From assembly GCA_014730275.1 (NCBI GenBank), contig WJIL01000068.1, positions 87,527-151,526 on the forward strand: a DNA stretch of 64,000 bases. The letters are read 5' to 3'. Below the pieces are notes generated by a model, which saw nothing but the letters and a program-made list of their open reading frames with translations, ran no database searches and was not told the origin of the DNA. This document shows positions 3,951-32,598 of this stretch, in pieces. Positions within the stretch are counted from its first letter, which is position 1; every line of letters begins with the position of its first letter. Both the position numbers and the translations under genes were made by a program. Source of the stretch: Promethearchaeota archaeon. GTDB lineage: Archaea > Asgardarchaeota > Thorarchaeia > Thorarchaeales > Thorarchaeaceae.

Positions 3951-5762
3951 TCAGGCAAAGTCAGACATAACAGTAGCCGATTCAGAGAATTCTCTAAACA
4001 GGGTCTTGAATTCTTGTTCCATCTTCTCTTCAATGGAATCCATAACGTCATTATAGCTATCCCAGGGAGCCAGTTTCATTCGTGCAATATTGTCAAGCAC
4101 GCTGAACTCCAATACTCTCCGTACGCTTACTCCAAGCTTGACTGCTTTTGACATATTCTTGGAGAATTCAATAATAATCCTGAGCATTCTGTATGTTTTC
4201 TCAAGGGGACAATATGTGTCTATTTCATGAAGGGCACTTTGCGTTAGGAAGTCCTCTTTAAGGATTGTAGCTGATTCAAGTACGGCTCGTTCGGACTCGG
4301 GTAAAGCATCAGGGCCGACCAGCTGTACAATTTCACGAAGCTCTTGGTCTTTCTGAAGAATCGCCATCGCTTCCTTTTCCAGCTTTGGCCAATCCTCTCC
4401 AAGATTGTTCTTGTACCAGTCTTTGAGATTTCCCTTGTAAAGGGAATAACTTTGCAATGTGTTGATAGCGGGGAAGAATCGTCGTGCGGCAAGATCCTTA
4501 TCAAGTGCCCAGAATACTTTAACGATTCTCAGTGTGGCCTGTGTTACGGGCTCGGAGAAATCGCCACCAGGTGGGGATACAGCCCCACATATAGTAACGG
4601 AACCTACTCGTTCCTCAGAACCTAGAACTTCGACTTTTCCTCCTCGCTCATAGAATTGGGCCAATCGAGAACCCAGATAAGCCGGATAACCTTCTTCAGA
4701 AGGCAGTTGTCCCAATCGTCCGGAAATCTCACGAAGAGCTTCGGCCCATCGGGAAGTAGAGTCAGCCATGAGGGCAACATCGTACCCTTGGTCCCGGAAA
4801 TACTCCGCTATTGTAACACCCACGTAGATAGATGCTTCACGTGCGGCAACGGGCATATTTGATGTATTAGCTATGAGTACCGTACGTTCCATCAAAGGCC
4901 GACCGGTTTGTGGATCTTCAAGTTCAGGCCAATCCTCCAACGCTTCAGTCATTTCATTTCCACGTTCACCACAACCAACATAGACAACCACCTGAGCATC
5001 TGCCCATTTTGCAAACTGATGTAGAGTCACTGTTTTTCCGGTGCCAAAACCACCAGGAATGGCCCCCGTCCCCCCTTTCGCTTGAGGCATAAATGTGTCA
5101 ATTACTCTCTGTCCCGTTACAAGAGGGGTATCGAGTTCGACGCGTTCTTTAAAGGGGCGCCTTCGTCTAACTGGGGCACGTTGCATCATGATAATCTCAT
5201 GTATTTCGCCTTTTTTATCCTCTATCTCACAAATAGAATCTACAACTGTGTATTTTCCTTCAGGTACAATTTTCGTCACCGTTCCGCCTTTTCCTGCAGG
5301 AACCAAAATCTTGGAAGTGATAATTTCATTCTCTGGTACTTCACCAAGAACATCACCTTCCACAACAGCATCACCCACCTCGACAGCGGGTTTGAAGTCC
5401 CATTCCTTCTCTCTGTCCAGACTTGGTACCGTTAACCCTCGGGATATGAAGTCTCCTGAGGCTTTTCGTAGCTCCGGAAGAGGTCTTTGAATACCGTCAT
5501 AAATGGAGCCGAGAAGTCCAGGACCAAGCTCAACTGAGAGTGTGTCACCAGTGGGTGCAACCGGTTCGCCAGGTGATACTCCGCTTGTCTCCTCGTAAAC
5601 CTGTACAGTGAAGTCCTTTTCGCCAACCTCTATTACTTCTCCAACCAGCTCTTCCTCTCCCACACGTACAACTTCATACATACGGACAGAGGGAATGCCA
5701 CTGCATGTGACAACAGGTCCGGAAATTGATTCGATTTGTCCAGTGCTTCTTGTCAGTATCAA
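3951..5762 (-). CDS. atpA: A/V-type ATP synthase catalytic subunit A
   Basis: 603 aa, Walker A GAIPGGFGTGKT, A-subunit-specific non-homologous region, end-to-end A-ATPase A similarity. Confidence 0.95.
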   Translation of the reverse strand: MILTRSTGQIESISGPVVTCSGIPSVRMYEVVRVGEEELVGEVIEVGEKDFTVQVYEETSGVSPGEPVAPTGDTLSVELGPGLLGSIYDGIQRPLPELRKASGDFISRGLTVPSLDREKEWDFKPAVEVGDAVVEGDVLGEVPENEIITSKILVPAGKGGTVTKIVPEGKYTVVDSICEIEDKKGEIHEIIMMQRAPVRRRRPFKERVELDTPLVTGQRVIDTFMPQAKGGTGAIPGGFGTGKTVTLHQFAKWADAQVVVYVGCGERGNEMTEALEDWPELEDPQTGRPLMERTVLIANTSNMPVAAREASIYVGVTIAEYFRDQGYDVALMADSTSRWAEALREISGRLGQLPSEEGYPAYLGSRLAQFYERGGKVEVLGSEERVGSVTICGAVSPPGGDFSEPVTQATLRIVKVFWALDKDLAARRFFPAINTLQSYSLYKGNLKDWYKNNLGEDWPKLEKEAMAILQKDQELREIVQLVGPDALPESERAVLESATILKEDFLTQSALHEIDTYCPLEKTYRMLRIIIEFSKNMSKAVKLGVSVRRVLEFSVLDNIARMKLAPWDSYNDVMDSIEEKMEQEFKTLFREFSESATVMSDFA

Positions 5763-5773
5763 CTACCTCCAAA

Positions 5774-6109
5774 TTAGAGTTTGACTTCAATGCCGACTGC
5801 TTTGCGAACGAGCTCATTGAGCATGGCTTCATAGGCTCCCGTAGCTCCACTGCGATCTGGAATAAGCAGGATAACTGGTACGGGGGCTTCTGATAGCTCC
5901 ATTATCGTATCTTCAACTTCCGAGGCAAGTGGCTCCGTTATCAGAATAAGACCCATACTGGGATTGCGAAAATACTCTCGAAGAGCTTCCCGTGTATCTT
6001 GCGGTGAATTGGGGATGGTGCAACGTTGGACTCCGGCCATCTTCAGGCCAGTAATTGTATCCCGGTCACCAATAGCCGATATCTCATCACTTGACATATA
6101 GAACTCCAC
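5774..6109 (-). CDS. atpF: A/V-type ATP synthase subunit F
   Basis: About 105-111 aa ORF directly upstream of atpA with a 12-nt gap. Sequence resembles the V/A-ATPase F subunit (ITGLKMAGV...ILLIPD). Confidence 0.75.
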   Translation of the reverse strand: MEFYMSSDEISAIGDRDTITGLKMAGVQRCTIPNSPQDTREALREYFRNPSMGLILITEPLASEVEDTIMELSEAPVPVILLIPDRSGATGAYEAMLNELVRKAVGIEVKL

Positions 6110-6120
6110 GCCACAATCGG

Positions 6121-6140
6121 ACTTCAGGCTGTGCTGAAGT
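6121..6140. other. Hairpin ACTTCAG-N6-CTGAAGT between the pyrI stop and the atpF start
   Basis: 7-bp perfect stem with a 6-nt loop, seen directly in the sequence. Confidence 0.3.
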
Positions 6141-6200
6141 GAAATCCTAAAAAGGGTTTGGAAAGAGTCGATGGGGGTGAGGAATCATTAGAATTCTTGC

Positions 6201-6761
6201 TCATCGCCGCTCCGTAAATTGCGAAATGATGTCGCTTTCTTCGATAAGAGTCCAGCAATATAGGCATTTCAACTGAGTTGGACACCGCGAAAGAACCTGA
6301 TACTTGGGTTCAATGGGTTCTCGTTCTTTGTTGGTAATGCAACGAGCGTTTGGACACTCTACAACATTGGTAATTCTGTCAGGAAGTTGAACACGTGTTT
6401 TTTTCACAACTTCTTCATTCTCAATTACGTTAATGGTTGCGTCTGGTGCTACAAGTGCAATCTTCGCAACCTCTTCATCTTCCAATATACGGTCTTCGAG
6501 TTTCACTATATCCTTTCTTCCGATGCGTGAGCTGGTGATATTCATGGCAAGTGTCATAATGTTATCTTCTTCACCGGTAATGCCAAGGATATTGAGTACA
6601 TCAAGTGCGTGTCCTGCCGCAATGTGATCTATGACAGTGCCAGCAGCAATTTTCACAATCCGAATTTTCTGGCTTCCTTCTTTAGGCACTGAGAGTTCCT
6701 CTTTTTGGTCTCTTCCCCCTGTCCTATCTTTTAGACCTTCCCATATTTGTTCTATCGACAA
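6201..6761 (-). CDS. pyrI: Aspartate carbamoyltransferase regulatory subunit (PyrI) with an N-terminal extension of about 30 aa. Orphan: no pyrB is adjacent.
   Basis: GTVIDHIAAG, GRKDIVKLED, ALVAPDATINVIENEEVV, and a C-terminal zinc domain CPNARC...CLYC. All hallmark PyrI motifs. Confidence 0.8.
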   Translation of the reverse strand: MSIEQIWEGLKDRTGGRDQKEELSVPKEGSQKIRIVKIAAGTVIDHIAAGHALDVLNILGITGEEDNIMTLAMNITSSRIGRKDIVKLEDRILEDEEVAKIALVAPDATINVIENEEVVKKTRVQLPDRITNVVECPNARCITNKEREPIEPKYQVLSRCPTQLKCLYCWTLIEESDIISQFTERR

Positions 6762-6837
6762 TGAATGAAAAATAATATCGCCATATAGGCGAAGCTTGAT
6801 ATTTGTATTTTCAAGACCTCAACGTGAGGTGCCCTAT

Positions 6838-8181
6838 TTGGTACTAGAAGGTCTTGGAAAATCACTCAACTCTGCATTGAAGAAACTCTTTGGTGCCGGA
6901 GTCGTAGATGAAGAGCTAGTGAAAGAGCTCGTCAAGGATATTCAGCGGGCCTTGCTCCAAGCTGACGTAGATGTTAACCTCGTGATGGCAATCACCAAAC
7001 GAGTTGAGGAACAGGCACTAGATGAAGATCTTCCACGTGGTATCTCCAGGCGCGAGCATATAGTACGTGTGGTCTGGGATACACTCGCTCATTTCCTCGG
7101 CGAAAAGCGGGTTCCTCTCAGAATCGAACCCGGGAAGCCCAATCTCGTTATGCTTGTTGGAATACAGGGTTCAGGGAAGACGACAACAACTGCAAAACTA
7201 GCCAGATACTTCCAGAAAAGGGGTATCAAATCAGGGGTCATTTGTGCAGATAATTTCCGACCTGGCGCATATAATCAACTCAAGCAATTAGCTGAGCAAT
7301 CAAATGTCCCATTCTATGGGGACGAAGACGAAGACAGCGCCGTCAAGCTTGCCAAACGAGGCTACAAAGCCATGAAGCAAGCTGGAGTCGAACTTATTCT
7401 CTTAGATACCTCAGGACGACATAGGGAAGAAACAGGCCTCATCAAAGAAATGCAGAACATTTCAAAAGCAGTTAAGCCCCAAGAAATCATACTTGTTATC
7501 GATGGAACACTTGGACAGCAAGCAGGCTCCCAGGCTGCAGCATTCAATGAAGCAACTGATGTGGGTTCAATTATCGTTACAAAATTGGATGGAAGTGCAA
7601 AGGGAGGTGGTGCACTTTCTGCAGTAGCTGCGACAGATGCTCCAATCAAGTTTATTGGCACCGGTGAAGATTTGGACGCACTTGAGCCCTTCAAACCTAC
7701 TAAATTCGTCGGCCGTCTTCTAGGAATGTCAGACATAAAGGGCCTCATTGAGAAAGTGCGCGAGGCGCAAATCGAAGTTGATGATGACGCTGCTATGAGA
7801 ATGATGAAGGGGCAATTCTCTCTGAAAGACATGATGGCTCAACTGAAACAGTTGAAGAAAATGGGACCAATAGGGAAGGTCATGGAGATGTTGGGATTGA
7901 AATATAAGCTACCAGACAATGTGGCTGAAATTCAGCAAGAGAACCTCCAGAATTTCGAAGTCATTATGAACTCAATGACCAAAGACGAACTAGAAGAACC
8001 GGATATCATCAAATCATCCAGAATTGAAAGAATCGCCCAGGGATCAGGTACTAGCAAAAGAGATGTTCGCGAACTCCTAAAGCAACATTCGCAAATGCAG
8101 AAAATGATGAAGAAACTAAGCAAATCTCGTCGCGGAAGAAGAGGCGGCATTCCGGGCATGGAAGGACTTCCAGGGCTCTAA
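6838..8181 (+). CDS. ffh: Signal recognition particle protein SRP54
   Basis: N, G and M domains. GIQGSGKTTT P-loop, DTSGR, TKLDG, Met-rich M domain with a C-terminal RRGRRGG. Likely start is the TTG at 6838 (MVLEGLGKSL); the ORF track starts it at 6796. Confidence 0.95.
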   Translation: MVLEGLGKSLNSALKKLFGAGVVDEELVKELVKDIQRALLQADVDVNLVMAITKRVEEQALDEDLPRGISRREHIVRVVWDTLAHFLGEKRVPLRIEPGKPNLVMLVGIQGSGKTTTTAKLARYFQKRGIKSGVICADNFRPGAYNQLKQLAEQSNVPFYGDEDEDSAVKLAKRGYKAMKQAGVELILLDTSGRHREETGLIKEMQNISKAVKPQEIILVIDGTLGQQAGSQAAAFNEATDVGSIIVTKLDGSAKGGGALSAVAATDAPIKFIGTGEDLDALEPFKPTKFVGRLLGMSDIKGLIEKVREAQIEVDDDAAMRMMKGQFSLKDMMAQLKQLKKMGPIGKVMEMLGLKYKLPDNVAEIQQENLQNFEVIMNSMTKDELEEPDIIKSSRIERIAQGSGTSKRDVRELLKQHSQMQKMMKKLSKSRRGRRGGIPGMEGLPGL

Positions 8182-17765: not shown

Positions 17766-19004
17766 TTACTTACTCAGAAGCTCATAAACTGCTATCAGAC
17801 CACGCTTCAAATCCGAGTGCGAGAAGGTATCTGCATTCTCGGGTACTGAACCGATTGAGAGTAGAAGAACAAGTGACAGTAAACGGGGAACAAGGGCTGT
17901 GTGCTCAAGCAGAAACTCCCTGTTCCCAGTTGCATCGACAATGAGACCCTCCAATCTACGACTCAGCAAGCTCAAATGATGACCAAGTGTTTCTGAGAAG
18001 GTGATTTCTCTAAACAGTTTCCTAAAACGAGAAGTGTTGTCCAACAACTCTGGTGGCATTCCGGCTTGTTGAAGAAGAGTCATTGCGTTGACAATGGCCG
18101 CTTCGTACTCATTTGGCCCAACTACAGGACGGGCATGCTTGGCATTATCGAGCTGTACAAGAAAACGTAAAGAATTGGTCAAGATGTTCCTTGAGATACT
18201 TGGTAGAGTGGAGGACACCTTGGTGAGCAGTTGACTATGCTCATCTTCGAACTTCGCCGCTTGGGAAGACTCCAGACTATTTTCAAATTCGCTGGATATT
18301 CTGACTTCAACAATTCTGGGTAATTGTTCGTGAGTTCCAATCCTTCGTACCGCAGTCAATGCGAGAAATTCCTCTCGAGAAACATAGAATAGGAGAATCC
18401 GAACCAAATCATATGCAATTTCGAAATCCTCCTCATTGATTCTTGATTTTCCTTTACTCCGAGCCAAAGCTGCACAGAGGATAGCCCACGAGCTGATAGC
18501 CCCGTCACAGATGCTCTTGCGCTGCTTCTGTTCGAAATCATGTTGTTTGAGAAAACGGGAAAGGCGTTCAGCAGCCCCATCAATTCTTCCTAGCGCGCTA
18601 CTTCCCAGTTTTACCTCACTCAACGATTGTAGGAAATCACGAGGGTCACGAGATGGAGGGCGGATAATGAAGCTTGGAGCCGACCTACTCATGCGCCACC
18701 ATTTACTTGTCGAAAGAAAGTAATCAAGAACATCGACAGACAGGGTTACATCAGAGGGGGTAGAGGTATCTCTTGAGTCAAGGTAGGTTACGAGTTGAGA
18801 GAAGAGGGAAAGAAATCGAGACAGGTGAGTGGGTAGATTTTTACCTGCAAATTGATATTCAGAAAATCTTTCAACAAGAGATTTAATTCTATTCAAAGCT
18901 CCTGTTGAAAGCTCACATTTCGCTAAGCCGTGATATACATCTATTGGCTTTCGTGCCAAAGTTCGATATCTCCACTTGTCTCTGTTGTAGAGAGAAGAAA
19001 TCAT
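17766..19004 (-). CDS. Uncharacterised all-alpha protein (412 aa)
   Basis: Long ORF, leucine-rich helical composition, no recognisable catalytic motif. Co-directional downstream of uppS. Confidence 0.5.
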   Translation of the reverse strand: MISSLYNRDKWRYRTLARKPIDVYHGLAKCELSTGALNRIKSLVERFSEYQFAGKNLPTHLSRFLSLFSQLVTYLDSRDTSTPSDVTLSVDVLDYFLSTSKWWRMSRSAPSFIIRPPSRDPRDFLQSLSEVKLGSSALGRIDGAAERLSRFLKQHDFEQKQRKSICDGAISSWAILCAALARSKGKSRINEEDFEIAYDLVRILLFYVSREEFLALTAVRRIGTHEQLPRIVEVRISSEFENSLESSQAAKFEDEHSQLLTKVSSTLPSISRNILTNSLRFLVQLDNAKHARPVVGPNEYEAAIVNAMTLLQQAGMPPELLDNTSRFRKLFREITFSETLGHHLSLLSRRLEGLIVDATGNREFLLEHTALVPRLLSLVLLLSIGSVPENADTFSHSDLKRGLIAVYELLSK

Positions 19005-19887: not shown

Positions 19888-20271
19888 TCAAATCATGGTT
19901 GCGACTTTTTCTGCCGCTCGTTTCATGTCCAAGAAAACCAAACCCAATTTTGCATCGGCAGTAGTGGATACAGTAAGGCAGGCATTCATGCCAGCTTGAA
20001 TTACAAGAAGCCAACCGTCATTACCCTTGATATTTACCTGCTCCAAATCCCCCTTTCCTAGCTCAATGGCAGCTTTCTCTCCCAAAGTCAACATTGCGGC
20101 CGTCATCGCAGCTACCTTTGCCTCATCAACATTTGTGGGCAGGGCTGAAACGATAGGCAATCCTTCGACACTAACTATCGCACATGCCTGTATTTCAGGA
20201 ATACTACCTTGTAACTCGTTTAGTACGCTTTCCAGCGTTTCACCGCGCGATTCCGCCATCTGTTTTTTCAC
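19888..20271 (-). CDS. mglB: Roadblock/LC7 domain protein, MglB-like partner of the upstream GTPase
   Basis: 127 aa, Roadblock/LC7 fold pattern (ACAIVSVEGLPIVS...GWLLVIQAG). Its start is 3 nt after the mglA stop. Confidence 0.8.
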   Translation of the reverse strand: MKKQMAESRGETLESVLNELQGSIPEIQACAIVSVEGLPIVSALPTNVDEAKVAAMTAAMLTLGEKAAIELGKGDLEQVNIKGNDGWLLVIQAGMNACLTVSTTADAKLGLVFLDMKRAAEKVATMI

Positions 20272-20273
20272 CT

Positions 20274-20837
20274 TTACTTGTACATTCGCTTGAGTATTAC
20301 CTCTCGTGCTATAGCTTGGAACGCCCTCTTAACTCCAACGCCCTGTATAGCAATAGTTTCATACACGGGTATATTCCCGCCTAATCCTAAAACATCGAGC
20401 ATCTCGTCTCGTGACATCCTGTTTGGAAGATCTCTCTTGTTGAGCATGATTACTATGGGGACCTCACGCTGTAAAGCATCGCCCATAAACATCTTCAGCT
20501 CTTCAAAGCTCTCCGCGTTCTCATCTCTCTGATCTGGAGATGAATCAGCAACGAAGAGGATGCCATCGGTACCTTGGAGGACGACCTTTCTCTGATGCCG
20601 ATGTCGCTTTTGGCCAGCCACTGTAAATACGTCAAACAGAACCCGGCCGCCTGCACTCATGGGTACATAGTCGAAGAAGAGTGTTCGGTTTGTCTCATCT
20701 TCAATAGATGTGAAATCACCCTTTTGTAGTCCTTCAACTTTACCGTACAACCATCGTAGTGCTGTGGTCTTTCCACCTAGGCTTGGGCCATAGAATACGA
20801 TTTTCAGATGAATGCGACCTTTATCGTCCTTCCGCAT
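20274..20837 (-). CDS. mglA: MglA-like small Ras-superfamily GTPase
   Basis: KIVFYGPSLGGKTT (G1), TLFFDYVPMS (switch I), FTVAGQ (G3), NKRDLPN (G4), GVGV. Near-collinear with Myxococcus MglA motifs. Confidence 0.85.
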   Translation of the reverse strand: MRKDDKGRIHLKIVFYGPSLGGKTTALRWLYGKVEGLQKGDFTSIEDETNRTLFFDYVPMSAGGRVLFDVFTVAGQKRHRHQRKVVLQGTDGILFVADSSPDQRDENAESFEELKMFMGDALQREVPIVIMLNKRDLPNRMSRDEMLDVLGLGGNIPVYETIAIQGVGVKRAFQAIAREVILKRMYK

Positions 20838-21073: not shown

Positions 21074-21547
21074 CTAGACCTTCTCGAGCTCTTCCAAAGC
21101 CTGTTTGAGTCCTTCCTCGTCAAGCTCTTTACTCTTAGCAGGAGTTGATGTCTCGACTGCCAAGAACTTGTCGAGCTCGTCAGCCAATTCCTTGCCTTGC
21201 TTTTTCATGACAAGACGAATGAGTCCAATGTTTACCTCAGCTCCAGAAACGACGCTAAGAACACCTTTCCCACAAGCCGATGCGAAGATTTTCCCATCGG
21301 AGAACTCAGAGGTGACTATTTCCAAATCACCGATCTGAAGATTCTTACCTTGTTCTTCACTTGCACAGAAAACCGCGCTAGCAATAGCACCAATCGAATC
21401 GGTATCAACAGGGAAAGGGGCCAACTTTGATACGTTGGCAATGGTAAGGCCGGTCTTATCAGTCAAGATAACGCGTTTAATCCCCTTATCCTGCCTAATA
21501 ATCTCAGTCAAGATTTTGTCGAATTGTTTTGGGTCGCTCATAATCAT
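21074..21547 (-). CDS. Roadblock/LC7 domain protein with a C-terminal helical extension
   Basis: N-terminal 110 aa show the Roadblock pattern (VILTDKTGLTIAN...GDLEIVTSEF). The C-terminus is K/E-rich. Confidence 0.75.
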   Translation of the reverse strand: MIMSDPKQFDKILTEIIRQDKGIKRVILTDKTGLTIANVSKLAPFPVDTDSIGAIASAVFCASEEQGKNLQIGDLEIVTSEFSDGKIFASACGKGVLSVVSGAEVNIGLIRLVMKKQGKELADELDKFLAVETSTPAKSKELDEEGLKQALEELEKV

Positions 21548-21561
21548 TACCCTCTCAATCT

Positions 21562-21855
21562 TTATTTCTTAAGGACTATCAGAATCAAGCCCTCTTTCTC
21601 ATCAGGCGCGATATTAATCTGACCTTTAGATGTGTCAAGTGTGAGGAACGACAGCGAGCCCTCTTTGAGCTCTCGTACTGCGTCCAAAGCTTTGCCAACA
21701 AGAGAAGTCACAATTGCTGCGATATTCTCTGTTGTTTGAGCGTCTAGGTCGCTGCTCAGGGGTAGTCCTTCCATGCTTGTTACGATTACGCCGCGAACCC
21801 CTTCCTGAGCTTTGAGCTTGGAAAGGATTGATTGTAGTTTTTCTTGGCTTATCAA
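21562..21855 (-). CDS. Roadblock/LC7 domain protein
   Basis: 97 aa ([13 protein letters not shown]...GLILIVLKK). 15-nt gap to the next Roadblock gene. Confidence 0.75.
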
Positions 21856-22036
21856 CTTCTGGAATCCCCGCTGATGGCAATCATGCTCTTGGCATTTTGA
21901 AGCACACTTTTGCCTATTTTAGACTTGTGGCAATGTGCTATCTGAAATATGTCCTAATTGCGCAAAATATACCATCATTGGTTAAAAGATGGCCAGATTT
22001 AGCATATCGGAACAAGATTTCAGGCGTAGTGAGTTG

Positions 22037-23668
22037 TTACTCTTCGTCCTCATCGTCATCTTTCAGTAGCGCCCGAGAATTTCGCCTCATCTGTGCAAAG
22101 CTCTTTGTTGATGCTAAATCGGCAGCTGCTGATGGCCCCGCGCGAGGTGCTTTTTTCATCATCTCTTGGGTCTGCTGAAGTTCTTCCTCTTCAGAAGCCA
22201 GAGCTTCATCTACCCGCCTTATGTTGTTTTCAATCGATGAGGGTGCTTGTTTCGCGCGGCTTGTCATAGCTTTCCTGAAGGATGCTATTCTCTTTGCGCC
22301 TTCGCTGTGTTTTCCACGGAAAGCTTCTTCACCAGCCTTCTGGGTGGTGAATGTAGCAGCAAGCTTCGGATCAAAACTTGCCATGATTTCATCCTCGTCT
22401 TTTGTGACATTCAAACGGGTCGTTACAGAACGAATACGCCTTGCTCCACTCTTATCGAGGTACTCCACCTGTAGCTGTACAGGAATGCTATCAGTATCGA
22501 GTTCCTCTTCTGGTTCCATTTCAAAGTAGAGTTCGTGATTTTCTCCTACAACGCCCACTTTTCCGGACTTCTTTGATTTCATTTCATCAATCACTGCACG
22601 TGACATACCTGATGCATCCTTGACACGTACACCGGGTGGAGTTATCATGCGGACAGTAACATCTCGTGCAATGGAGGAAGCACCCGCAAGGGCAGACATA
22701 CTTCTGTCAAGCTCATTTGGCGTTACATAGTACATCTGACCGCCTGTTGCCTCTGGAAGGAGGCCAAGCGTCTTAAGCTCCATTCCAGAACCCCCGGCGA
22801 TTCCCACCACATCAAAAGCTGTACCAATATCACGAAACATCTGCCCCATCTGTTCATAGTAATCAGTTGCGGGTGTAACCTGGAATCCTTCCAACGAGCC
22901 AACACCTTCATTGGCAAGACCATCTGTAAGAAGTAAAAGCCGCCCAATATCTCGATGTTTCGCAATAGTATATCCCATAGCAACCGCGGGGCCTAATGCA
23001 GTACCTCCTTTCGGGCCCAAGTCTGCTACGTGCCTTTTTAACCGGTCACTATTTTTCCCGACAGCGACCATTTTCACGTCATCCAATAGAGTCCGACTTG
23101 TTTCTAATATCCGGTTCAAACTGGGGAAAGCCTCCCTTGGAAGATGGACAGCTTCTCCAGTCAGCGGATTTCTATAGGCGACCGAGCTTTCAAACTCAAT
23201 TATGCCGAATAGAGTCTCTGGTGAATTCGCTGCCAGAGAGTCAATTGAATTCCGTAGACTTCTTTTAACGGCCTCAAGATTTGCGCCACCCATCGAGCCA
23301 GATACGTCTATGAGCGCTAAGAAAGCGCCACTGGCAGTTGACACTTCTTGTTCAGTAGATTCATCTTCGGAAGGGGGTGGTGCAATCAGAAAGTCGGATT
23401 CATCTCCTGCTGTAATAATCTCGCCTTCTACGACATTGAGAGTTCCACAGAACGGACAGATGAAATGTTTTCCAACTTTGGGATCTTCCACAATCTGGTC
23501 AGTACTGATAAGATATCCTCCACAACGTTCACAAGCAATTGGTTTTCCTACGATTTTCCTAACCTCGTGGGTAAGACCGCTGAATTCCACACGCATGACA
23601 TAGGGGATATCGTCTAGAATTTTCTTTGAGGCCGGAAATGAGTTAGATGTGGGCTTGAGTAGGGGCAT
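22037..23668 (-). CDS. Zinc-ribbon + von Willebrand A (vWA) + beta-sandwich protein with an acidic disordered tail. Resembles the Sec23/24 zinc finger and trunk.
   Basis: C-x2-C-x21-C-x2-C zinc finger (CERCGG...CPFCG). MIDAS DVSGSM about 30 aa later. LFGIIEFESSV resembles the Sec23 trunk VGLITFGRMV block. Beta-rich segment, then an E/D-rich tail. Confidence 0.55.
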   Translation of the reverse strand: MPLLKPTSNSFPASKKILDDIPYVMRVEFSGLTHEVRKIVGKPIACERCGGYLISTDQIVEDPKVGKHFICPFCGTLNVVEGEIITAGDESDFLIAPPPSEDESTEQEVSTASGAFLALIDVSGSMGGANLEAVKRSLRNSIDSLAANSPETLFGIIEFESSVAYRNPLTGEAVHLPREAFPSLNRILETSRTLLDDVKMVAVGKNSDRLKRHVADLGPKGGTALGPAVAMGYTIAKHRDIGRLLLLTDGLANEGVGSLEGFQVTPATDYYEQMGQMFRDIGTAFDVVGIAGGSGMELKTLGLLPEATGGQMYYVTPNELDRSMSALAGASSIARDVTVRMITPPGVRVKDASGMSRAVIDEMKSKKSGKVGVVGENHELYFEMEPEEELDTDSIPVQLQVEYLDKSGARRIRSVTTRLNVTKDEDEIMASFDPKLAATFTTQKAGEEAFRGKHSEGAKRIASFRKAMTSRAKQAPSSIENNIRRVDEALASEEEELQQTQEMMKKAPRAGPSAAADLASTKSFAQMRRNSRALLKDDDEDEE

Positions 23669-23858: not shown

Positions 23859-24224
23859 TTGGTTGATGAAGGTAGAGTTGAAGAGATTATAGCAGAAACC
23901 ATGTCAGAAAATGCCGTAATCGAAGGAATGGTAGCGTGTAACGCAGAAGGAGAGGTAATCTTTGGTCATACGTTATCTGACAGCATAAAGCACAAAAAAG
24001 TAGCAGATTTGGTGGTAAAGCTCAGCTCGCTTTCCTCACAACTCAGTGGAACTGTTGATAAAGGCGAATTGAAAGAAGTGAGCATCACTTCAGAGAATGG
24101 ATATGTCATCATCCTTGGGGATGTGGAGCTAGTACTCGCCGCCATCGTAGGTGAAGAAGGACGGGAATCAATGGGGCTTATCCGGATGACCCTTAGAAGA
24201 GCGCTAGTATCCATGTTGGACTAA
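23859..24224 (+). CDS. Roadblock/LC7 domain protein (divergent from the vWA gene)
   Basis: 121 aa (MVACNAEGEVIFG...GYVIILGDVELVLAAIV). Confidence 0.75.
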   Translation: MVDEGRVEEIIAETMSENAVIEGMVACNAEGEVIFGHTLSDSIKHKKVADLVVKLSSLSSQLSGTVDKGELKEVSITSENGYVIILGDVELVLAAIVGEEGRESMGLIRMTLRRALVSMLD

Positions 24225-30848: not shown

Positions 30849-31241
30849 TTAGGATTCATCCGAATCGAGCTCTGCTTCTATATTGGTGATTACGAATCCG
30901 CGACCGCCAGTAATGGTGGTATTGCTGCTTTTGCATTTTGGACACTTCATAGGAGCGAAGGCTGCAATTTCAGGGGGAACATCATCTGGGCTCTGTGCTT
31001 CCCCTTCGAAGCCACATTCTGCACACCGAATGCTCCCCTTAACTTTCTCGATATTAAGCTCAGCACCTTCAAGAATGGTACCTTCAGTGGCTATTTCAAA
31101 ATTGAATTTCAGTTGTTGAGGCATCAGAAAGGTGAATTCACCGACCTCCACGTTAACGCCCAGAATCTGCTTCACATCATGGCCTTTTGCTGCTTCCAAT
31201 GCAGTATCACGAATGGAACACGCGGCTGAAAATTCGTGCAT
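30849..31241 (-). CDS. hypA: [NiFe]-hydrogenase nickel-insertion protein HypA
   Basis: MHEFS start, and CxxC...CxxC zinc site (CAECG...CPKC). The ORF-track ORF extends upstream, but the HypA-like start is the MHE at 31241. Confidence 0.85.
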   Translation of the reverse strand: MHEFSAACSIRDTALEAAKGHDVKQILGVNVEVGEFTFLMPQQLKFNFEIATEGTILEGAELNIEKVKGSIRCAECGFEGEAQSPDDVPPEIAAFAPMKCPKCKSSNTTITGGRGFVITNIEAELDSDES

Positions 31242-31365
31242 TATCCCTTTTTCCCTGGAGATGGTCCTTGGTTGTTTGTTAAGGCGTTTTTGTTGTGAAC
31301 ATCTGCTAGACACTCTTTATATACAACCACGAAATATAGATTCGAAAACGGATGGAGGATGTGGA

Positions 31366-31998
31366 TTGAACAAACCACCCAACAAAAAGGCAGACACAAA
31401 AGACAATCCTCCAGATTTTTCCGACATACCAGGCATCGGTCCAACACTCAGTAAACGGCTAAAGAAGGCAGGATATGATTCATTGCAGCAAATTAGTGAA
31501 AGTATCCCTGCTGAAGTAGCAGAAGGTGTGAAAGGAATCAGTAGGGACAAAGCCCGAGAGATAGCGATTAGTGCAAGCAGACTGCTCGAGAAGACTAGTG
31601 AGGGGGAAAAGGCAAAAATAGCCGAGGGGGAAGCCGATTCAGAGATTGATGATCTTGCAAAAGAGTTACGAAGTAAGGATCAGCAAGTCGCTTTAGGAGC
31701 CATTGACAGGTTAGGCAAAATCGAAGATAAGAGAGCCACAGAGCAGCTGATGAGTTGCCTAGAAGATCCAAGATACATGGTAAGAATGTTCGCTGCGGTG
31801 CAGCTTGGAGAACGGGAAGATGAGAAAGCAGTTGATGCTCTAATTCAGGCACTACATGACGATTCACTTTTTGTGCGTCAGACTGTCGCCGGGGCTCTAG
31901 AGAATATTGGCTCTAAGAAGGGTCTAGATGCAATAGCAGATGCAGAAAATGAGGGAATTCTGCTTAACGAGCTTCCCGAAGGCAAAAGACTAAACTGA
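31366..31998 (+). CDS. Helix-hairpin-helix + HEAT/PBS-lyase repeat protein
   Basis: TTG start at 31366 with GGAGGA 7 nt upstream. HhH (DIPGIGPTLSKRLKKAGY), then about three HEAT-like repeats (ALGAIDRLG..., MVRMFAAVQLGE..., FVRQTVAGALENIG). Confidence 0.6.
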   Translation: MNKPPNKKADTKDNPPDFSDIPGIGPTLSKRLKKAGYDSLQQISESIPAEVAEGVKGISRDKAREIAISASRLLEKTSEGEKAKIAEGEADSEIDDLAKELRSKDQQVALGAIDRLGKIEDKRATEQLMSCLEDPRYMVRMFAAVQLGEREDEKAVDALIQALHDDSLFVRQTVAGALENIGSKKGLDAIADAENEGILLNELPEGKRLN

Positions 31999-32034: not shown

Positions 32035-32598
32035 ATGAAACTACAGGAGAACTGTTCAGTGGAAGACCGGTCAGTGGATGAAATTCAAACCAAAATCAGC
32101 GATTTGGATTTAGACTATATGCGTGGATTGGTTTCTGAAGAAGAATACAAAGCTAAGATGGAAGAATTGCAGGAGAAGTTGGAGGCAGCAGGAGGGAAAC
32201 CTTCTGGTCTCTCTGCAGCACAAAAAGCCAAAGAGTCTCTCAAATCGCCACCAGAAGAGGAATTCACTCAGCAACGAGGAGTGGCAACAACAGACCCGGT
32301 TACAGCCGTCAAAAGAGCTGTACAGAAGTTCAGAAGGATTCCAATAGAACGGATTGCCCAAGAAGCTGGTGTGAGCGCAATCAACACAGCTAAGATATTA
32401 ACCGATCTACTGGATGGACGAGAGTTATCTGGGCGGATAGATCGTGAAAGGGGAGATCTGCTATTGGGAACCGGTAGTGGCCCTGCACCGAAAAACATCG
32501 TAGTTTGCCCATTCTGTGGTCGAAAGATGGACAAGATAGCAGTACGGGGAGAAACCGTCACCTGTAATATGTGTCAAGAATCTTTTGTCATTTCATAG
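32035..32598 (+). CDS. Hypothetical protein with a C-terminal zinc ribbon
   Basis: 187 aa, helical N-terminus, C-terminal CPFCG...CNMC. Confidence 0.45.
   Translation: MKLQENCSVEDRSVDEIQTKISDLDLDYMRGLVSEEEYKAKMEELQEKLEAAGGKPSGLSAAQKAKESLKSPPEEEFTQQRGVATTDPVTAVKRAVQKFRRIPIERIAQEAGVSAINTAKILTDLLDGRELSGRIDRERGDLLLGTGSGPAPKNIVVCPFCGRKMDKIAVRGETVTCNMCQESFVIS

Follow-up and report, generated by a model that had tools for sequence, protein, structure and literature searches.

We analyzed a 64,000-nucleotide (nt) stretch, hereafter the window, from the genome assembly of a Promethearchaeota archaeon of the family Thorarchaeaceae (GCA_014730275.1, contig WJIL01000068.1, positions 87,527 to 151,526), and found that it encodes a 543-residue protein which is a true homolog of Sec23 and Sec24, the subunits of eukaryotic coat protein complex II (COPII). 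The protein belongs to an Asgard-wide family of cytosolic proteins built on the Sec23/24 core. We consider it probable that it acts as a metal-ion-dependent adaptor or scaffold, and not as a coat subunit that serves as GTPase-activating protein (GAP) for Sar1. By sequence, its closest eukaryotic relatives are the ZnF-vWA/cpRAS-VWA proteins, and not Sec23/24. The gene and the domains of its product, numbered by amino acid residue (aa), are laid out as follows:

22037..23668, minus strand: the whole Sec23/24-like gene (543 aa plus stop codon), from the list of open reading frames (ORFs), homologs and the AlphaFold2 model
23549..23668, minus strand: N-terminal beta strands, part of the split beta-barrel/sandwich, aa 1-40, from the AlphaFold2 model
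23426..23542, minus strand: C4 zinc finger of the Sec23/24 type (C46-x2-C49 ... C71-x2-C74), aa 43-81, from PF04810
23327..23380, minus strand: flexible linker, acidic and Ser/Thr-rich, aa 97-114, with a predicted local distance difference test score (pLDDT) < 50 for aa 103-113
22679..23326, minus strand: vWA "trunk" domain with a complete MIDAS (metal-ion-dependent adhesion site) motif, aa 115-330, from PF04811 and PF13519/PF00092
22400..22678, minus strand: Sec23/24-type beta-sandwich, the C-terminal part of the split barrel, aa 331-423, from PF08033 and model strands at aa 332-422
22064..22399, minus strand: C-terminal helical domain of five helices, aa 424-535, from the AlphaFold2 model
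22040..22063, minus strand: acidic tail KDDDEDEE, aa 536-543, with low pLDDT

The ORF starts at an ATG with a GAGGT box about 10 nt 5' of it. Pfam places zf-Sec23_Sec24, Sec23_trunk and Sec23_BS in that order along the protein, which bears out an initial annotation of this DNA that had described a Zn finger followed by a vWA trunk and a beta-sandwich; the ORF coordinates it gave were also correct. The trunk model (PF04811) scores 32.1 bits, above its cutoff of 27, and in homologs it is covered up to positions 9-221 of its 241 positions; PF13519 and PF00092 match this region too. The Zn finger model (PF04810) reaches 24.0 bits (E = 4e-5), just under its cutoff of 25, and the sandwich model (PF08033) reaches 29.7 bits at aa 336-422, under its cutoff of 33.5, while being matched over model positions 3-86 of 86.

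An AlphaFold2 model built from the family alignment had a mean pLDDT of 89 and a predicted template modeling score (pTM) of 0.88, and it was uncertain only at aa 103-113, within a linker (aa 97-114) that is weakly conserved in alignment A1, and at the last seven residues, the DDDEDEE of aa 537-543, where pLDDT falls below 50. The N-terminal strands lie at aa 4-6, 10-12, 23-28 and 38-40, and the sandwich superposes on that of Sec23/24 as well as on that of ArnB, an archaeal vWA protein. Five high-confidence helices span aa 425-535, a region in which Pfam gives no match to PF04815. The earlier suggestion that both the helical and the gelsolin modules of Sec23/24 are lacking was therefore right for the second and wrong for the first. 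A helical domain is present, as the approximately 485 residues that superpose on Sec24 and Sec23A exceed the approximately 400 ordered residues of Zn finger, trunk and sandwich together. Only the gelsolin-like domain is absent, since the protein stops at residue 543 straight after the helical domain, and Pfam finds no match to it. Given that the 543-residue protein has no segment resembling a transmembrane helix and a pI of 5.1, we conclude that it is a soluble protein of the cytosol. It contains no GTPase domain according to Pfam.

Several lines of evidence tie this protein to Sec23/24. In a single-sequence search of the PDB, the best matches were to Sec24 of yeast and of human (E ~2e-3), with alignments spanning aa 111-453. 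A profile made from 41 family members aligned its positions 8-458 with residues 46-522 of human Sec24A (E = 2.3e-27), a span that starts in the N-terminal strands, takes in Zn finger, trunk and sandwich, and reaches the first helices of the helical domain. The same profile matched other Sec24 paralogs at 1e-26 to 1e-17 and Sec23 at ~1e-12 to 1e-10, with generic vWA proteins ranking below all of these, so that the significant profile-level homology is stronger for Sec24 than for Sec23. When we searched the PDB with the model using Foldseek, the first 46 matches were all Sec23/Sec24 chains (E 7e-31 to 4e-21, query TM-score 0.65-0.73). The model thus has the Sec23-type sandwich and finds its nearest structural neighbors among Sec23/Sec24 and not among vWA-only proteins, the outcome on which the initial annotation had staked its Sec23/24 interpretation; that interpretation is supported, although the observation behind it was confirmed only in part.

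Alternatively, the protein could be a generic vWA protein, whose Sec23/24 matches reflect the common vWA fold joined to an unrelated zinc ribbon, with no relationship to COPII. Two of the three Sec23/24 Pfam matches do lie just below their gathering cutoffs, the VWA_2 and VWA models match too, NCBIfam gives nothing beyond a local vWA-type match, and bacterial genomes yield weak matches to the vWA core. However, the Sec24A alignment runs from the N-terminal strands to the start of the helical domain, and superposition on Sec24/Sec23A covers 485-486 of the 543 residues, compared to ~170-190 for vWA-only proteins. The four Zn cysteines, moreover, align with those of Sec24A. We regard the generic explanation as very improbable. 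Two more specific labels of this kind were rejected: the NCBIfam "marine sortase target" model, which gives a local vWA match far below its cutoff, and a vWA-MoxR system, for which the VMAP-M8 match was not significant (E = 0.08) and no AAA+/MoxR neighbor was seen.

The order and spatial arrangement of beta-barrel, Zn finger and trunk, and probably of the helical domain, are common to the Thorarchaeota protein and Sec24/Sec23, and the former differs in being ~200 residues shorter, in having no gelsolin domain and in sharing only ~15-18% identity. In Sec23, the gelsolin-like domain supplies the catalytic residue for GAP activity toward Sar1. Since that domain, and the residue with it, is absent here, a GAP role of the Sar1 type is impossible on this reasoning, and we infer that the Thorarchaeota protein cannot act as a Sar1-type or Sec23-type GAP.

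What the protein does retain is its metal site. The MIDAS motif consists of D121-x-S123-x-S125, T223 and D249, and these residues, together with the Zn-binding cysteines, were invariant in 32 close homologs, in 41 homologs with identities down to 20% and in a strictly archaeal set, where C46, C49, C71, C74, D121, S123, S125, T223 and D249 were each conserved in 35/35 sequences. The initial annotation had named conservation of both sets of ligands as a check, and they are conserved without exception among these archaeal homologs. Human Sec24A, aligned to the same hidden Markov model (HMM), keeps the four cysteines opposite C46, C49, C71 and C74, although at the MIDAS positions it has D, S, A, S and T, so that only the equivalents of D121 and S123 are kept. 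The archaeal family therefore keeps a complete MIDAS motif that is degenerate in Sec24A.

An intact MIDAS is also found in a second group of eukaryotic proteins. An exhaustive search returned many proteins of 600-1000 aa that match aa ~130-500 at E values of 1e-33 to 1e-20, far stronger than Sec24 with the same single query. The named matches include a nemertean "circularly permutated Ras protein 1-like" and proteins from the stramenopiles Chrysoparadoxa and Platysulcus, the amoebozoans Rhizamoeba, Pellita and Entamoeba invadens, and the choanoflagellate Acanthoeca. Pfam finds either Ras plus Sec23_trunk in them, or zf-Sec23_Sec24 plus trunk and sandwich, and at least 21 of ~110 long eukaryotic representatives carry a domain resembling circularly permuted Ras (cpRas). 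Entamoeba and Pellita have stand-alone proteins of 520-547 aa, which can be aligned with the Thorarchaeota protein from one end to the other. Elias and Novotny (2008; PMC2430557) previously described the cpRAS-VWA family together with paralogs that lack the GTPase, and they noted its four-Cys finger and its VWA/Sec23-trunk annotation, although a function could not be assigned.

We compared the two groups with Sec24A using profiles. The strictly archaeal HMM, built from 35 sequences, scored 80 eukaryotic ZnF-vWA proteins at 200-277 bits (median 236), compared to 82 bits for the aligned Sec24A fragment; reciprocally, an HMM of the eukaryotic group scored the window protein at 291 bits and the Sec24A fragment at 67 bits. 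An hhalign comparison of the A2 profile with the eukaryotic-group profile gave a probability of 100% and E = 1e-97 over 471 columns, although A2 includes six eukaryotic stand-alone sequences, so that this comparison is not strictly archaeal. The Zn and MIDAS residues are kept in 75-80 of the 80 eukaryotic proteins. Beyond the four-Cys finger and the intact MIDAS, the Thorarchaeota and eukaryotic proteins share a TDGLANxGxG motif, the sandwich and a helical C-terminus; they differ in that many eukaryotic members have additions that the Thorarchaeota protein lacks, namely a circularly permuted Ras domain at the N-terminus, a segment inserted behind the first vWA strand, or other fused modules.

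Judged by these sequence comparisons, the Asgard and eukaryotic ZnF-vWA proteins form one MIDAS-intact family, with Sec23/24 more distant. The greater similarity to the ZnF-vWA proteins could indicate orthology, or it could merely mean that Sec23/24 evolved faster. As a tentative possibility, one that we would not put ahead of its alternatives taken together, the Asgard proteins may be archaeal counterparts of a separate MIDAS-intact ZnF-vWA/cpRAS-VWA family and not stripped-down versions of Sec23/24. Sec23 and Sec24 would then be derived proteins that evolved fast, with loss of the metal site and acquisition of the gelsolin domain, and the ancestral job would have been metal-dependent partner binding coupled to a GTPase of the Ras superfamily. 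In the literature we searched, we found no paper that names both cpRAS and Asgard.

MIDAS-containing vWA domains generally use a divalent cation to bind an acidic residue on their partner, as in integrin I domains. By analogy, the adaptor or scaffold role that we favor would have Mg2+ or Mn2+ held by D121, S123, S125, T223 and D249, and the bound metal would take hold of an acidic side chain on a partner protein. Further binding surfaces, comparable to those by which Sec24 binds cargo and to those of ArnB, would lie on the Zn finger, sandwich and helical domains. Since some eukaryotic relatives are recurrently fused to a Ras-like domain, there is a hint, and a faint one, that the Asgard/ZnF-vWA family may work together with small GTPases.

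Some points weigh against this proposal. The MIDAS geometry that it assumes is a prediction from sequence. Gene context, as described below, offers no family-wide partner, and the adjacencies seen in Thorarchaeota are only a lead. Finally, a 2025 study (PMC11914678) reports that three Asgard Sec23-like proteins and one Asgard Arf, tested in yeast, co-precipitated at low levels and independently of nucleotide; this argues against simple GTPase-effector behavior, at least for that Arf.

A second scaffold-like role has a precedent within the archaea. Eukaryotes and Asgard archaea are not alone in having the core of vWA domain, split sandwich and helical bundle, which is shared by crenarchaeal ArnB and by bacterial vWA proteins. 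We used ArnB/ArnA (and VWA2/ArnE) of Sulfolobus acidocaldarius (PDB 8s05 and 5a8j) as a comparison system. ArnA and ArnB regulate the Sulfolobus archaellum through phosphorylation; the MIDAS of ArnB is occupied, its core serves as a regulatory scaffold, and the Zn ribbon of ArnA, a separate protein, binds ArnB at its sandwich and helical domains (PMC12852372). The Thorarchaeota protein could similarly be a scaffold under phosphorylation control, in which modification of the C-terminal helical bundle changes the interaction with a partner and so controls a cellular program. ArnB shares with it the vWA domain with MIDAS, the split sandwich and the helical bundle; the ArnA ribbon docks where Sec23/24 bears its own Zn finger; and the C-terminal helices of the Thorarchaeota protein contain conserved Ser/Thr residues (S513, T521, S531). 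However, the family profile matches ArnB over the MIDAS strand only (profile positions 109-168, E = 6e-12), as opposed to near full length for Sec24A, and neither an FHA-domain gene nor a protein kinase gene occurs among the neighboring genes we examined. ArnA carries its Zn ribbon and FHA domain on a separate protein, whereas the Thorarchaeota finger is fused in cis, a feature that, along with the near-full-length profile similarity, is specific to this protein and Sec23/24. ArnB is also smaller, at ~380 aa compared to 543 aa. We therefore consider a switch of the ArnB type quite unlikely.

A third possibility is that the protein forms the inner coat of a proto-COPII, being recruited to a membrane by a small GTPase in its GTP-bound state (in Thorarchaeota, one of the MglA type under Roadblock regulation) and there selecting cargo or bending the membrane. 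Sec24 and Sec23 are its closest solved structures, and eukaryotic relatives carry a fused Ras-like GTPase domain. The gene neighborhood also bears on this explanation, as a GTPase and several Roadblock genes flank the Sec23/24-like gene in the window:

21562..21855, minus strand: RoblA, Roadblock/LC7, with LAMTOR5-like Pfam matches (PF03259, 58.5 bits)
21074..21547, minus strand: RoblB, Roadblock/LC7, with MAPKK1_Int/MP1-like (MP1/LAMTOR3-like) matches (PF03259, 37 bits; PF08923, 35 bits)
20274..20837, minus strand: small GTPase of the MglA type, labeled Arf/Ras by Pfam and assigned by phmmer against the PDB
19888..20271, minus strand: RoblC, Roadblock/LC7, in an MglB-like position (PF03259, 62.6 bits)
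23859..24224, plus strand: RoblD, weakly Roadblock-like and divergent (PF03259, 24.4 bits, cutoff 23)

Downstream of the Sec23/24-like gene, a gap of 181 nt (21856-22036) precedes RoblA, followed by gaps of 14 nt to RoblB, 236 nt to the GTPase and 2 nt to RoblC, and then by a UPP synthase gene; upstream and divergent lie RoblD and then SMC, ScpA and ScpB. RoblB additionally has a weak match to the NCBIfam MglB model (E = 7e-4), below its curated cutoff. We considered the GTPase as an analogue of Arf/Sar1, as its Pfam label would have it, and rejected this, given that its best PDB relative by phmmer is Thermus MglA (E = 2e-39, 138 bits, compared to ~50 bits for Arf); its sequence has the G3 motif TVAGQ. 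The GTPase and the Roadblock (MglB-family) genes are thus a prokaryotic module of the MglA/MglB type and not an Arf/Sar system.

We surveyed synteny with tblastn and jackhmmer over 46 loci, and the loci examined included 21 from outside Thorarchaeota. Every Thorarchaeota locus with enough flanking sequence has RoblD upstream and, downstream, RoblA (~200 nt away), RoblB, the MglA-type GTPase and RoblC in the same order, an arrangement that speaks for the proto-COPII explanation. However, SMC and the UPP synthase gene are likewise syntenic in Thorarchaeota, and since the whole region is conserved in this way, adjacency to the MglA and Roadblock genes is weak evidence. MglA itself is 90-93% identical across Thorarchaeota, compared to 59-65% for the adjoining Sec23/24-like gene. 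In several Thorarchaeota genomes (L014, L017, L019, L024, L027 and L039), RoblB and MglA lie apart because of insertions of roughly 0.5-4 kb, which split the Sec23/24-like gene, RoblA and RoblB from MglA and RoblC, while the spacing within the first three genes stays constant.

Outside Thorarchaeota the linkage is missing from all loci examined: none of the 21 Asgard loci has a Roadblock gene within 6 kb, and a small GTPase gene lies nearby in 4 of them. Up to ~2% of genes in Asgard genomes encode small GTPases (PMC10307638), and by our rough estimate a stretch of 12 kb would contain one with a chance of ~20%, so four of 21 is no enrichment. A conserved operon with a small GTPase was therefore rejected as functional evidence. 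Three of the four loci belong to one Asgard clade (L035 3396-7611, L037 3930-7653 and L038 ~4181-7443). There, genes for an Rce1-like CAAX prenyl protease and, next to it, a Ras-family GTPase (Pfam Ras ~152 bits) share the strand of the Sec23/24-like gene and lie ~1.3-2 kb upstream of it, with variable genes between; this, too, is about the chance level.

The locus offers little else that resembles COPII. The Thorarchaeota neighborhood has no Sar1, Sec13 or Sec31, and the window holds no second paralog with which to form a heterodimer like that of Sec23 and Sec24. The adjacent GTPase being of the MglA type and not Arf/Sar, GAP activity, for which the protein lacks the Sec23-type residue, could be provided by the adjoining Roadblock (MglB-family) genes. 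In one lineage outside Thorarchaeota (L005 6001-9049 and L006, contigs from ENA metagenomes; homolog P0145, 28% identity), the homolog shares the last 14 nt of its 3' end with the next gene downstream, which encodes a WD40 beta-propeller of 481 aa; the overlap suggests translational coupling and brings to mind the propellers of Sec13/31; this counts for the proto-COPII explanation, in a single lineage.

The charge of the C-terminal tail cuts both ways. In most archaeal and eukaryotic members, the net charge over the C-terminal 12 residues is +4 to +8 (alignments A2 and A3; P0124-P0171 and P0160-P0217), and such polybasic tails, found in most members outside Thorarchaeota, would suit acidic membranes; the Thorarchaeota tail, in contrast, is acidic. 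Considering the weak and nucleotide-independent co-immunoprecipitation with Arf as well (PMC11914678), we think a proto-COPII inner coat unlikely, and we continue to favor a metal-dependent adaptor or scaffold.

The acidic tail had earlier been likened to an interaction tail. The DDDEDEE stretch is indeed present, although acidic tails are limited to the Thorarchaeota orthologs and a few close relatives, and we rejected the idea of a conserved interaction motif because most members are polybasic. The acidic tail is thus a feature of the lineage and not of the family. In Thorarchaeota members it follows a conserved K/R-x-L-F motif, a reversal of charge relative to the polybasic relatives.

We next consider how widely the family is distributed. 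A word-indexed search found 316 homologs at E <= 1e-3, nearly all of them ~540 aa long, ~62% identical and from Thorarchaeota, and 918 relatives came out of an exhaustive scan with HMMER, which covered 1.84 billion cluster representatives. The closest sequences are a JGI metagenome protein (99% identical) and an NCBI protein (82%), followed by many sequences with 59-65% identity that bear the name Candidatus Thorarchaeota. Among GTDB species representatives, full-length homologs occur in many species of Thorarchaeota and in Hermodarchaeota, Freyarchaeota, Jordarchaeum, Odinarchaeota, Heimdallarchaeota and unclassified "Promethearchaeota," whereas bacterial matches cover the vWA core only, at E ~1e-8 or weaker. 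Given that full-length homologs are found in Asgard lineages and eukaryotes and that bacteria match only in the vWA core, the label "eukaryotic signature protein," which the initial annotation had offered conditionally, is a reasonable one.

A metagenome-assembled genome labeled Undinarchaeota, a DPANN phylum, also has a full-length homolog (CAZFHY010000012.1, L043 6001-7605), which aligns with query residues 1-542 at 28% identity; this could reflect horizontal transfer or a binning error. Among proteins with unusual architectures, P0173 (1089 aa, JGI metagenome) continues from the ZnF-vWA part into Kelch and ankyrin repeats, and P0258/P0288 (834/1094 aa, Acanthoeca) have an actin-like N-terminus fused to the vWA part, which may be an artifact of the gene models.

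The existence of this protein in Thorarchaeota was already known, both in database annotation and in the literature. The first report from Thorarchaeota is said to be that of Zaremba-Niedzwiedzka et al., in Nature in 2017. The ortholog in Thorarchaeota SMTZ1-45 (63% identity) is named "SEC24 family transport protein" at NCBI, and its gene order is as in the window. Proteins related to COPII Sec23/24 have been counted among the eukaryotic signature proteins of Asgard archaea (PMC8382908, PMC10307638, PMC6141808). Asgard Sec23-like proteins have also been modeled in a study (PMC11914678; Nat Commun 2025) that gives Sec23 as their Foldseek neighbor and describes them as having every Sec23 domain save gelsolin, with the residues that contact Sar1 missing. 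They are proteins of the same kind as ours, and very probably of the same family, with nothing substantive to tell them apart; the passages of that paper which we consulted make no mention of an intact MIDAS motif or of cpRAS-VWA relatives.

Asgard Sec23/24-like proteins are part of the case that the building blocks of vesicle coats predate eukaryotes. Since the same has been argued before for Thorarchaeota and further Asgard lineages, the window adds one more ortholog to it. The added value of our analysis is modest, and it lies in two possibly under-appreciated features, an invariant MIDAS that Sec24A lost and a set of nearest eukaryotic relatives that, by sequence, are cpRAS-VWA/ZnF-vWA proteins. 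Together, they call for caution in reading the Asgard proteins as "almost COPII."

Elsewhere in the window, a 412-aa ORF at 17766-19004 on the minus strand has no Pfam or NCBIfam match, and ORFs of 398-399 aa without a Pfam match occupy the same position after the UPP synthase gene at two other Thorarchaeota loci (L001 and L002). On the plus strand, a protein with HEAT repeats and a helix-hairpin-helix is encoded at 31132-31998, followed at 32035-32598 by a 187-aa protein with a marginal match to the PCI domain (22.9 bits, cutoff 22), a domain typical of the eukaryotic proteasome lid, COP9 and eIF3.

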